Part shown: in pieces, positions 22,295-28,283 of the stretch
Position numbering within the stretch: position 1 is the stretch's first letter
How the letters are laid out: each line of letters opens with the position of its first letter
NCBI GenBank assembly: GCA_964016885.1
Contig: OZ024765.1
Location: 18,538,001-18,602,000 of the forward strand
From: Eledone cirrhosa
Lineage: Eukaryota
Direction: 5' to 3'
DNA: 64,000 bases
Position numbers and translations under genes: made by a program
Notes under the pieces: model-generated
Told to the model about the DNA's origin: nothing
Databases searched by the model: none
Seen by the model: only the letters and a program-made list of their open reading frames with translations

Positions 22295-22432
22295 GACGAA
22301 AGTGGATGTACGTTTTTTGAAGCTCCATGAGTAAGCAATTTTTTGAGGATTAATTGTGGAGAATTGTTTATTTTTTTGTTCCGCTGAAGCATTATAAGAC
22401 ATTCATTTGTATCCTGTGAAGGAATAACTCAT

Positions 22433-22460
22433 AATATTTGGGCCTTTTGGCCCAAATATT
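22433..22460 (+). promoter_or_regulatory. Perfect 12-bp stem-loop in the LINE 5' UTR
   Basis: aatatttgggcc-tttt-ggcccaaatatt, 48 nt upstream of the ORF1 ATG; function unknown. Confidence 0.5.
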
Positions 22461-22507
22461 TGAACTTTATTTTGAAAAAAAATAATAATTTTTTTCTCAA
22501 AAAAAAC

Positions 22508-24363
22508 ATGGCGGAGCCACGCCCCCTAGAGGCGGGTCTGCTGTCGTGCAACGGCGACTTGAGCGTTGAGAGGAGAGGTGAGGCGAGGAGCGCCACCAGC
22601 ACGAATGTGAGCAGCGACAGTGCCAGCACCAACGGGCCGAGCGGCGCGGAAGGTGGTAACAGCGACAACACCAACACCAACAAGCCGAACAGCGCAGAAG
22701 GTGGTAATAGCGAGAGCACCAACAAAACGAACAGCACAGAGAGTAATAGTAGCGACAGCAACAGCACCAACAAGGCCAACAGCACAGAGGGTAACCACGA
22801 CACAGGGGAGAACAACAACAGCAATAGCAGCAGCAACACCAACAAGAACAACAACAGTGACAACACCAACAAGAACACCTTCGCTGCTGTGGCAGCGGCT
22901 AAAAGGAGACCATGCTACAGCATCGACTTAACCAACAGAGAGGAAAAGTTGGCCCAGGCCTGGAAAATCATAAATCAAGAGCAGACCTGGGCAAACTTAA
23001 CTGTCCCGGCAGAAGCCATTGAGGCAGTGGAAAAAAGAACGGTGCATTTCAGATGCATCTCAGTAGAGACAAAGAGGGCAGCGATAATCGCCCAAGCTGA
23101 TATAGAAGCCGCACTGAAATACATCAGAGAGGGGCAGGCAATACGGCACCGTTTCGGTGCTGTTCAAGTCTGAAGCCCTCGCTGTGAAGCATTCAATGAC
23201 CCCTTGCAAAACCAGCAAGGTTATAATGTACCCCTCCCACATGGGAAAACGAATAGCACGTGTGCGCATTCCCAGGATTCCACCAGGACTTGATATGTGG
23301 TGGCTCCTGGGTTGCGTAATCGTGGAAGGAACGGATACAGTCCCGGTAGAGGCAACGAGAACTGCCAGGGACGACTGGTCCGGGGTTGATCTGGAGATAC
23401 TGCTCCAAATCAGACCCGAAAACGTAAAAGCAATCCCGGACCACATCCGCCTCCAAAAGGCCGCATTGTTTCCTTTGTGGGGAAACGACACACTTGCGAG
23501 CCTTCTGCCCTCAACTGCCGAAAAGCGCAAGGGGTCGAAATATTCCACTGCTGGCGACGCCGGGACAAGGACCACCAGCAACACCGTCAACAATGGAACC
23601 ACCAAAATTGCACACCCAGGGGGGAAACGAGGAAAGCTCTCCCATTCCCCCTCCCCCCCAAAATACACACACGAACAAGAACATAAACACTCACTCAGAC
23701 ACAAACACGCTCACAGCCACAGACCCCTCATCCTCCAGCAGTGAAGATGAGGGAAAACCAAAGTCCCCCAAAATACAAAAAACAAAACACAAAAAAAAAA
23801 GAAATCCACAAAGCACAAACACCCCCACAAAAAAAAATACACACACCACCCACACAAACATTTTCCCCACAGCATCACCAACACAACCACCAAAATCCCC
23901 CAAACGCAAACAAGCTAAACAGACACAAGAACAAATAGACACACAAACATCAGAAACTACAGACACCCCACCCACAACAAACGCAGACACAATAGAAACA
24001 ACACTAACAAAGCTATCACCACCACAATCACACGAACAAATAAAACCCGAGCAACAAAACATTAAAAACTTCGTGCTTGCCAGAAGGGCCAACAAGGAAT
24101 TGATGGCCCATGTAGCACGAAGCACAAACATCGAAAAAGACGGGGAAACATTTGAAGCGAGCACATTTCGCGTACCAGATAATTTGCTTCTGATGCGAAT
24201 GTCGCTCGCTTCATACAAAGAAATTCGAAAGAGCTTTCCTCGGGATGTGGGAACCCCGAACGTAAAACCCACGTCAAGACTATTAAAGGGGTTCCCAAAA
24301 GAAACCCCACAAACCATGGAGGTCGAACCACCCGACCTTCACAAGACCCCGGAAGGTAAGTAA
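22508..24363 (+). pseudogene. Tx1-type ORF1 (gag-like, CCHC zinc knuckle) disrupted by two frameshifts
   Basis: ATG at 22508; frame changes near 23130 (KYIRE to RGRQYGTVSVLF) and near 23450; CFLCGETTHLRAFC (CX2CX4HX4C) at 23467-23508 is in the frame that ends at TAA 24363; low-complexity S/N/T and T/P/K segments. Confidence 0.85.
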
Positions 24364-27300: not shown

Positions 27301-27812
27301 ATAACTTCCAGAAATCCCTCGCTTGGGAGTGCTACCGGGGGGCGCTGCCGGTTCGGGATAAACTCTACAGGCACGGAAGTGCTGTCAGACGAACCTGCCC
27401 GAGATGCGCGCAGAGCGACGAAACCGTTCTGCACGCACTCGTCCAGTGTCCGTGCATTGCTGACTTGTGGGGTTATGTCGAACAGCTATTGTCGCGTGTA
27501 GAACGGATCCGGCTATCGTCCGAGTCCATAGTGAAGATTGACCCGCCGCCTTCTTTTGGTCAGGAAGGGCAGGCAATTTTCCTCTGCCTGGTGGCAGTAG
27601 CGAAAGAGGTTGCATGGTGGACCAGGTTGAAAGGACTGAAGACAGACACTTTTCTCTTCGGCCAATCCCTCATCAACTTCTTCAAGTTTCACTTGGAAAG
27701 GAAGGTGAGGGTGGAGAGAGAAGTGTTGCCCCCCAGTACATTTACGGAAAGGTGGGTGAATGTGGCGAGAATGGCCCGCGTGAGTGGACCTACTCTGATC
27801 ATGCGCCTGTAG
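24393..27812 (+). CDS. LINE ORF2: AP endonuclease + reverse transcriptase + C-terminal CCHC zinc finger (L1/Tx1 type), 1139 aa
   Basis: APE motifs SLNVRGL, ISET, VYAP, GDWN, YIDR, SDH; linker GPSYWKLN; RT motifs SPGLDG, FRPITLLN, LDQSKAFDRV, VRQGCPLS, YADD, LLGV; GGLG; CPRCAQSDETVLHALVQC. Confidence 0.97.
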   Translation: MAIRVGSLNVRGLGSPWKQGHLLNDLRSLGMDVIAISETRISDTRALAPIFDDYQIFASVSRPGMGGGVTVLFRKCLDLEVRSIFRDPDGKLVVLDVSNSEGGAFRLVAVYAPTGAGRPDFFRRLENFLLTSRPLLLIGDWNGILEARWDCVGVSDRSGGCKSLKYLISQFQLSDRYRLDFPNAPVWTWTNRIGSSRSYIDRIFIRKRDRNSVGCPHFKTVAYSDHKLVICMVDLDKTRRLGPSYWKLNMSFPARKAYRDRVNNLVKQKLTGGVVNNRWWGALKREIRATSIGFSKEVAIEKNRKEEGLIAKLDEAICSGIATDVLAARMALDHFYNAKHEGCIVRAKARALRNEGTKAARWARFAETQRGNKTTIRSLTDRDGHELSDSKQMCEAFRQHFARLFGRMGESETAADFSPYLDGLPRLSTADAERCEEPITSVEIQDALVGCSSRKSPGLDGLPYELYVNMSDLFSDLLEALYCNWQQNGSIPSSVSRGVVTLIRKDENKRDTLDNFRPITLLNTEFKILAKVLAKGLALVVKDLVGEAQTCAIPTRSIHDNLHLMRYIIERVGCKPGFGGALINLDQSKAFDRVDHRYLEAVLEAAGFGPVFRSWIAAMYSGICSVVKVNGHLSEPFQISRSVRQGCPLSSLLYVLTLEPLLRKLELLQGIPLEPGRRKAASAYADDITVMVSDTSEIEVIRTHLEEYERLTGAKLNPEKSVGLQLGTWRGKSMPSNSVVGRWTDGPVKLLGVWFGPDLQVDKNWDEVTSRIANLTQKWAERKLSLKGWAEVANAYIASVIYYRLTVVPCPRPRLANLERLLFKFLWRGRVPLVRRSICCQHPLRGGLGMPWLMMRRHALRLRHLQIFCLNGEQVWSPFLRRAFPQLISLTELQSWVKKRPRLGDWHLECCQALTALCKVGNAVSGTSTQDFYRGLVEGKYDDVLGEALGVNEVELTSMFRRTFEPGTMDNFQKSLAWECYRGALPVRDKLYRHGSAVRRTCPRCAQSDETVLHALVQCPCIADLWGYVEQLLSRVERIRLSSESIVKIDPPPSFGQEGQAIFLCLVAVAKEVAWWTRLKGLKTDTFLFGQSLINFFKFHLERKVRVEREVLPPSTFTERWVNVARMARVSGPTLIMRL

Positions 27813-28077
27813 GCTGGTGAATTCGAGAAGGAGAGGGGTGCCCTTCCCGGGTGCCCTAGGAGCGTCGGGTGGCTCAGGACTGGTGGGGTGCTTGAGTCAA
27901 CCCTGGGTGGTGATCCCTCTTATTGGGGAACTTTCATTGTTGTATTTTTATTGTTATTTTGTTTTTTTGTTATTTATACTTACTCGATCTCTATGTAAAC
28001 CCCCACTGTCCCTGTCTATTGTGTTGTCCCCTATATGTCGGCCCTTGTGGCCAATAAATGAAATCATTATTATTATT

Positions 28078-28283
28078 GTGGATTGGCAGTATCGGTAGAG
28101 GGTCGGACGCCATGCTTTGACGTATAGAGTTACGGCCCTTGCCATTCTGATTTCAAATCCCGCCGAGGTTAACTTTGCATTTCATCCTTACGGGGTCGAT
28201 AAAATAAAGTACCAGTAATGCACTGGGGTAATTGCTGGCCTTGTGCCAAAAGTAGAAACAATTATTATTATTATTATTATTAT
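28078..28283 (+). mobile_element. Near full-length tRNA-derived SINE S1 with (ATT)n tail
   Basis: A-box-like TGGCAGTATCGG, B-box-like GATTTCAAATCC, central ttcatccttacggggtcgataaa domain, tail gccttgtgccaaaagtagaaaca(att)7. Confidence 0.93.

Follow-up and report, generated by a model that had tools for sequence, protein, structure and literature searches.

A 3' hairpin shared by an L1/Tx1-type LINE lineage and an abundant SINE in Eledone cirrhosa suggests a stringent-type partnership

The window analysed here is a stretch of 64,000 nucleotides (nt) from the octopod Eledone cirrhosa. It contains a full-length long interspersed nuclear element (LINE) of L1/Tx1 type, referred to as family A, and directly downstream a nearly full-length copy of a very abundant short interspersed nuclear element (SINE). 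Both carry a predicted hairpin with a CTTGT loop shortly before their 3' ends, and both are followed by ATT repeats (Table 1). These shared features suggest that the LINE lineage mobilises the SINE through the hairpin, which would be unexpected of L1-type elements in animals. The elements lie in a nest composed of a minus-strand R4/Dong-like fragment, a truncated SINE copy, the LINE and the second SINE, with ATT repeats between each. All coordinates are positions in the window, and L-numbers denote other genome loci that were sampled.

Table 1. Positions of the elements, their parts and the flanking repeats in the window
Feature	Position	Strand	Observation or basis
R4/Dong-like LINE, 3' fragment	21748-22096	-	Frame 21825-22163; terminal AAT repeats, read on its own strand
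SINE copy, 5'-truncated, just upstream of the LINE	22127-22270	+	90% identity over 133 nt
(ATT)8 at LINE 5' junction; target microsatellite and 3' flank of upstream SINE	22271-22294	+	Sequence
L1/Tx1-type LINE, full length, family A	22295-28065	+	5' end the same in 30/30 best genome matches, 3' end the same in 30/30
Open reading frame 1 (ORF1), one CX2CX4HX4C zinc knuckle	22508-24363	+	Two deletions break the window copy, near 23126 and 23454 (gaps against L053)
ORF2, 1139 amino acids, open: apurinic/apyrimidinic (AP) endonuclease, reverse transcriptase (RT), C-terminal zinc-binding region	24393-27812	+	Pfam PF03372, PF00078 and PF13966 above cut-off
LINE 3' hairpin (predicted in RNA): stem, CTTGT loop, stem	28040-28052	+	Part of minimum-energy fold; inner three pairs in 10/10 aligned LINE tails
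AATAAA immediately 3' of hairpin	28053-28058	+	8/10 aligned LINE tails; remaining two differ by one letter; absent from SINE
(ATT)4 at LINE 3' junction	28066-28077	+	Sequence
SINE, short form, nearly full length	28078-28260	+	A-box-like motif 28084-28095; B-box-like motif near 28151-28161, one change here
SINE 3' hairpin, CTTGT loop as in LINE, second pair swapped, 16 nt before end	28236-28248	+	Alignment and covariation
ATT run at SINE 3' junction, target	28261-28283	+	Sequence and duplication analysis

Family A is a young family. The last 26 nt of the LINE occur in 1,423 exact copies in the genome, and of the 29 other copies among the 30 best matches to its 3' end, 28 show 99% identity across 2 kilobases (kb). 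ORF1 is intact in five of the six other copies translated (L032, L033, L040, L050 and L053). Its single zinc knuckle motif was identified by eye; the protein matches no Pfam family at cut-off, no homologue was found, and a structure model from the single sequence was unusable (predicted local distance difference test score 36). The closest relative of ORF2 with a solved structure is human L1 ORF2p (E 1.7e-54, residues 4-854), with R2 proteins far behind (2e-21 or weaker). In an RT tree of 45 rows built by a quick method, the LINE forms a group with its related families in this genome and a protein of Argonauta hians (Shimodaira-Hasegawa-like approximate likelihood-ratio test, SH-aLRT, 99). This group falls within the L1-like proteins, apart from the CR1, RTE and R4-like RTs of the same genome (SH-aLRT 91), and is separated from an Astyanax and a Gossypium protein. 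The first-pass annotation had called the LINE L1/Tx1-type, and the ORF2 domains, the closest relative and the tree placement all agree with this classification from sequence. The separate upstream ORF1, the 5' truncation of copies and target duplications within approximately 7-18 base pairs (bp) are also traits of the L1/Tx1 group. ORF1 proteins of the Tx1 clade carry a zinc knuckle and are not of the coiled-coil type of vertebrate L1. The tree holds no named Tx1 reference protein, and Tx1 and L1 proper are left together here under one group label; an assignment to Tx1 is suggested by the target specificity, by the visually identified knuckle and by work on Octopus vulgaris in which L1-Tx1 is the sole L1-type group listed for LINEs with recent activity (PMC13282606).

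The SINE and its tail are represented by 17 copies or parts in the window. The last 27 nt have 134,138 exact copies in the genome, and 109 tails were located within 864 kb of unselected DNA. The repeat is short and non-coding, has a high copy number and is flanked by target duplications, as expected of a SINE. The commoner short form is ~185 nt in length and the long form ~215 nt. The short form lacks ~33 nt just 5' of the tail, and the hairpin is found in both (L024:609-822 and L061:6545-6763 compared with the copy in the window). Motifs that we take to be the A and B boxes occur in 43 and 61, respectively, of 72 full copies, at a spacing ~20 nt longer than in transfer RNA (tRNA). With regard to a parent tRNA, there is no tRNA call in the window and only weak alignments were obtained to 16 tRNA-family matches in the genome; an Rfam search returned nothing relevant. 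The SINE may be one of the octopus SINEs OK, OR1 and OR2. SINE units that are truncated or carry internal deletions were also observed in tandem arrays, with the same short target sequence between them (45120-45737 on the minus strand, and L061:5780-7238). Elsewhere in the genome there are clusters in which five to seven tRNA-Thr-like genes lie within 3 kb (L222 and L224, at G000:C1 near 243.65-243.68 Mb) and dispersed tRNA-Ala/Val/Asp-like repeats with varying anticodons.

LINE 3' ends were gathered behind ORF2 C-termini across the sampled loci and yielded at least ten tail types, carried by families whose ORF2 C-termini are ~60-90% identical. Seven LINE 3'-end matches had no match to the tail motif; three of these are similar by eye and four are cut or interrupted. 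Ten LINE tails and four SINE forms were aligned without gaps through the hairpin, excluding the decayed single-copy families H and I. The hairpin consists of a 3-bp stem and a five-base loop, which is CTTGT in most rows. It generally lies 16 nt from the end of the element, as in the SINE and in families B, C and D, with a spacing of 17-18 nt in three LINE families (17 nt in family A). When the loops are aligned, GGCC-CTTGT-GGCC of the LINE stands opposite TGGC-CTTGT-GCCA of the SINE, where the second pair is changed from C-G to G-C. The first-pass annotation had matched the same element ends, which are present as quoted, by means of a gapped alignment that this gap-free one supersedes.

The inner three stem pairs are standard in all 42 cells of the 14 rows. 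Double changes are seen at two stem pairs, from G-C to A-U in family C and from C-G to G-C in the SINE. The covariation score of 0.385 was not reached by any of 500 shuffles, and controls in which the alignment was slid scored at most 0.104. A shared, covarying stem-loop, which the first-pass annotation had named as a feature to look for, is thus present, with compensatory changes as in stringent pairs though with low stability. It forms part of the best fold in five of five LINE tails and one of three SINE tails. As the folding energies are unremarkable, stability was dropped as evidence for the hairpin. The AATAAA that follows the hairpin in the LINE tails is presumably a poly(A) signal. In addition, for six of 90 distinct family A tails the whole insertion measures only ~27-33 nt and begins at the base of the hairpin (L004:2770, L133, L134, L137, L139, L267), four of them with duplications of 13-17 bp; the 56 family C tails include no such case. 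The hairpin base is possibly a stalling or minimal-template point.

The likeness of the tails was scored with a weight matrix built from nine LINE tails and no SINE, families H and I again being excluded. On this profile the SINE tail scores 14.7 bits. Only 29 of 1,715,245 background windows score as high, classed by eye as 22 LINE tails, six SINE tails and one decayed SINE core, i.e. a single unrelated window in 1.7 million. The two commonest SINE tails were each shuffled 200,000 times, and no shuffle attained the profile score of the real tail. A relaxed motif consisting of the loop plus ATTA has 94 matches in the 864 kb of unselected DNA, of which 83 are SINEs, eight are LINEs of this lineage and three are other sequences. 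In ungapped comparisons anchored at the end, families B and K match the SINE at 18-20 of 29 positions (p <= 4e-5), and families C and D at 15-18. The decayed core, a copy of the central region of the SINE, scores 18.5 bits (28166-28215 in the window, and L150 minus strand near 5626), and may be a chance match or the trace of an older internal tail.

The LINE inserts at ATT repeats. At least four ATT units precede all 30 full-length 5' ends, ATTATT follows 29 of the 30 best-matching 3' ends, and all 23 full-length copies with both junctions lie within ATT runs. The sequence ATTAT directly follows 43 of 50 ends of family A and 42 of 49 of family C, and the ends lie within at least four ATT units in 28 and 33 of these, respectively. 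Truncated LINE copies show duplications of at least 9 bp in 10 of 31 cases. Six of these are non-trivial, with a length of 13-17 bp and a start at ATTA or GTTA; duplications in the L1 clade are reported to peak at 13-15 bp (PMC6007223). In the SINE, 60 of the 109 tails are followed by a target duplication of at least 11 bp (mispaired control mean 4.35; median length 14-15 bp), and in 49 of the 60 the duplication begins at the first base past the SINE. Copies with no other SINE within 450 nt give a similar picture, with 32 of 66 duplicated against 2.9 in the control and a median of 15.5 bp. Twenty-four clean duplications begin ATTAT (A in 22, T in 23, T in 23, A in 24 and T in 23), with a pyrimidine before the duplication in 23.

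A start at ATTAT and duplications of ~11-22 bp are therefore common to LINE and SINE. A run of six A follows none of 109 SINE or 119 LINE ends, in agreement with the earlier claim that poly(A) is absent. The further claim that the repeat is the tail of the elements is not retained. Because the SINE duplications start there with ATTAT, the ATT after the SINE is mostly target, and the idea of an ATT run belonging to the elements was rejected.

The lineage also contains sister families with other targets, which keep the hairpin and insert at (TATC)n or (TA)n (L201-L220, L150, L153, L159, L200, L057:464-492). One of them, family E, has 1,974 exact tails; all 20 of 20 copies examined have TATC or TA repeats after the end, and none has ATT. 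Since family E keeps the hairpin but uses TATC or TA targets, the ATT-targeting families are indicated as drivers of the SINE. A quick tree places family E (TATC) as sister to family A (ATT) with family C (ATT) outside, an order that suggests a switch of target. Two further observations concern the LINE junctions. At each of the 30 full-length 5' junctions the repeat breaks off in phase, after a whole ATT unit (22271-22297 in the window, and L031-L060), which may reflect an RNA start inside the upstream repeat or ATT pairing during 5' joining. Another LINE copy lies directly 3', head to tail, in six of 30 family A copies, and arrays of full-length LINEs with short ATT runs between them were seen (L002, L011/L012, L018, L026/L027, L050-L055).

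Several observations weigh against a hairpin-based partnership. The two double changes amount to two events, and the shuffle of the covariation tool ignores relatedness among rows. The fourth stem pair is broken in 10 of 14 rows, fold-stability z-scores range from -3.0 to +1.1, and two of three SINE tails prefer another fold. Families H and I were excluded from both profile and alignment, and three tails were cut by 1-2 nt for register. The shared stretch is ~29 nt at 52-69% identity, lower than the 35-61 bp at 72-95% shared by bivalve pairs (PMC11481361), and family A of the window matches the SINE at only 12-16 of 29 anchored positions. When four LINE 3' untranslated regions (UTRs) and two SINE forms were aligned locally without an anchor, 42 to 257 of 300 shuffles scored equally, and this comparison was dropped as evidence; the tail similarity claimed in the first-pass annotation thus exceeds shuffles when anchored at the end or scored by profile, but not otherwise. 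Of the truncated LINE copies, 21 of 31 lack a duplication of at least 9 bp, and four of the ten duplications found are trivial ATT runs. The junctions of LINE and SINE, which the annotation had proposed to compare, agree in duplication length and start but differ in the preference for long ATT runs: only six of 109 SINE ends have at least four ATT units, close to the background (351 of 2,258 ATTATT starts) and unlike the LINE. A weaker preference of a SINE has a precedent in SINEU-1 and SINEU-2, of which 23% and 13% are flanked by the target (PMC4494074). Finally, the SINE sample appears older than the youngest LINE copies, with a nearest-neighbour identity of median 93.8% and maximum 98.4% (n = 63) compared with up to 100% in the LINE.

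These points bear on three other explanations. With the same driver, recognition might be relaxed, such that any RNA with AUU repeats pairing to the nicked target is used and the hairpin is a relic or has a role in RNA processing or stability. The weak folding energies fit this explanation, as does LINE tail conservation that is partly that of the AATAAA signal, and crocodilian SINEU elements were assigned to Tx1-Mar by target preference without a shared 3' end (PMC4494074). Nevertheless, relaxed recognition seems unlikely here, as the loop and its spacing are kept across LINE families with ORF2 C-termini diverged to the extent described and in a SINE that has lost AATAAA and changed its stem on both sides. 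Moreover, clustering of 729 ATT runs did not bring out any repeat family that stops at ATT and carries another tail; one apparent case, a 550-bp repeat near 63159-63709, continues past the ATT. It is considerably more doubtful that the similarity arose by chance between two short AT-rich ends sharing only a microsatellite habitat. The unanchored alignments and the low identity of family A alone are what such a coincidence would produce, but the rarity of unrelated windows reaching the SINE score, and the position of the match at the very end of the SINE in register with the target, make it a very improbable account.

The SINE might also owe its mobility to a different LINE, whether of CR1, RTE or R4/Dong type or from a family that is extinct or was not sampled, the likeness being incidental or historical. 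Other clades were sampled only in ~1.3 Mb, and the absence from the SINE of the LINE's enrichment in long ATT runs would be in keeping with a separate driver. One CR1 family, with 2,929 exact tails, has the TGGC..GCCA of the SINE at a distance of 12-22 nt or more from its own end and matches the SINE at 14-15 of 29 positions at the best of nine offsets. This gapped, partial likeness (p ~0.002-0.015, picked after the fact) counts to some degree against the L1/Tx1-type lineage. At the true end of the CR1 family, however, which is a 10-nt repeat of its own, the match disappears (p 0.5-0.96), and ATTATT follows none of 25 copies while TA-type repeats follow 20 (L292-L316). CR1 was rejected as the driver on these grounds. 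The RTE elements sampled end in GAT or AT repeats, and the R4/Dong-like LINE was rejected for its opposite strand and unrelated tail. The LINE-tail profile gives -15 to -26 bits for the CR1 end, the two RTE ends and the R4/Dong-like end, and RTE and Dong ends match the SINE at 9-13 of 29 positions. A better fit of the SINE tail to another clade had been named beforehand as refuting the pairing; among the ends sampled there is none, and a different LINE driver is accordingly improbable.

That this LINE lineage drives the SINE is thus held with high confidence. Dependence on the hairpin is a good deal likelier than its alternatives, though less secure than the identity of the driver; it is predicted by analogy. 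Within the lineage, the suggestion that the LINE of the window or a close relative is the driver needs amendment. Families B, C and D, which have the 16-nt spacing, or their ancestors are likelier drivers than family A, and given the apparently greater age of the SINE sample relative to the youngest LINE copies, family A was probably not the main historical driver.

In the mechanism that we consider probable, the ATT-targeting lineage would mobilise the SINE by ORF2 recognition of the hairpin, with a 3-bp stem and CUUGU loop, 16-17 nt before the RNA ends. Zebrafish L2 elements require the loop, and their stem can be exchanged (PMC4176376). The pattern of a kept loop and changed stem seen here resembles this, and by analogy the ORF2 protein would bind the CUUGU-loop hairpin of both LINE and SINE RNA. 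The endonuclease would nick the AAT strand, giving a primer that would pair with AUUAU, directly after GAAAnn in the RNA. This AUU may derive from read-through into the flank of the donor copy, with RNA polymerase II passing the AAUAAA of the LINE and RNA polymerase III continuing from the SINE as far as the nearest downstream T run. Reverse transcription would begin at AUU in a register set by the hairpin, ignoring poly(A) and flank. Because the sister families keep the hairpin at TATC or TA repeats, the hairpin would select the RNA, while endonuclease and AUU pairing would select the DNA. 'Stringent' here refers to recognition as suggested by conservation and covariation of sequence.

The other LINEs nearby show similar associations with simple repeats. 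The fragment upstream of the truncated SINE, which we take from its motifs to be of the R4/Dong clade, uses the opposite strand of the same microsatellite, and the two LINEs often abut tail to tail (also in the flanks of L005, L008, L029 and L082-L085). Each LINE group appears to hold a microsatellite niche of its own, with CR1-like elements at (TA)n and RTE-like elements at AT or GAT (L292-L316, L062, L063). Repeated stretches that are not microsatellites occur at the start of the window (739-6434, and L065), and suggest a local segmental or tandem duplication.

The lineage is likely the engine of a very large SINE expansion in an octopod genome; in Octopus vulgaris SINEs make up 11.6% of the genome and are mostly unclassified (PMC13282606). 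Since unanchored alignment of the UTRs does not exceed shuffles, ordinary BLAST-based searches for partners would miss a shared element of this kind, and similar pairs may go unseen elsewhere. The ATT and TATC sister families provide a natural experiment on change of target choice. Ohshima asked whether the L1 clade was initially stringent and relaxed twice, on the basis of plant and algal examples only (PMC3472496, PMC3747384), and the question becomes directly testable with an animal L1/Tx1-type lineage whose ORF2 is intact and was recently active. The broadest interpretation, to which we give about even chances, is that this is the first animal L1/Tx1-type lineage in which a minimal hairpin of 11 nt, and not poly(A), determines the choice of RNA; the lineage would by this route propel a SINE numbering hundreds of thousands of copies, and would have switched target from ATT to TATC with the hairpin kept. 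RNA and target choice would then be separable modules, and stringent recognition perhaps ancestral for the whole L1/Tx1 group.

No Tx1 or animal-L1 pair with a shared tail was found in the open-access literature searched, a scope that does not extend to Repbase or Dfam. None appears in the available text of PMC3531059, PMC5804259, PMC6007223, PMC9115989 and PMC5786205, and the SINE motifs have no match in two searchable supplement files of PMC4824008. A catalogue of 58 pairs, in the portions available, contains three L1-tailed SINEs, all from plants or algae, and neither a Tx1 partner nor a mollusc pair (PMC3472496, PMC3747384). The partners given for bivalve SINEs are CR1, CR1-Zenon, L2 and Nimb (PMC11481361, PMC4758252, PMC4824008). 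OK, OR1 and OR2, credited by citing papers to Ohshima and Okada (1994), are tRNA-derived, as the SINE described here presumably is, and OR1 and OR2 are filed as CORE-SINEs; the accessible 58-pair table gives them no partner LINE (PMC3747384).

Among Tx1 elements, Kibi, Koshi and the crocodilian (TTCC)n and (TTTC)n families are likewise AP-endonuclease LINEs that insert in simple repeats, with different repeats used by related families. Their targets differ from the (ATT)n and (TATC)n/(TA)n used here, and the available text does not mention a partner SINE or tail hairpin for them (PMC4494074). Crocodilian Tx1-Mar and SINEU resemble the present pair in that a SINE is tied to a Tx1 lineage by its target, with a preference weaker than that of the LINE in two of three families. 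Unlike the SINE here, SINEU elements have small nuclear RNA heads and poly(A) tails, and no LINE with their 3' end was found (PMC4494074). The plant and algal pairs LINE1-1_ZM with ZmSINE2/3 and L1-1_CR with SINEX-3_CR share with it an L1-clade LINE, a conserved terminal hairpin with compensatory changes and a tRNA SINE (PMC3472496, PMC3747384), but have poly(A) or poly(T) ends and ~50-80 nt in common. The stringent pairs of the L2, CR1 and RTE clades (e.g. UnaL2/UnaSINE and ZfL2-1/ZfL2-2) show the same shared 3' stem-loop with a conserved loop, an exchangeable stem and a short repeat at the junction (PMC4176376, PMC3747384). In contrast to these, the present LINE is of L1/Tx1 type, the stem has only 3 bp, ~29 nt are shared and target DNA makes up most of the junction repeat. 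The pair thus appears to be a variant, computationally well supported, of the stringent LINE/SINE arrangement, and the searched literature holds no such record for this clade in animals.

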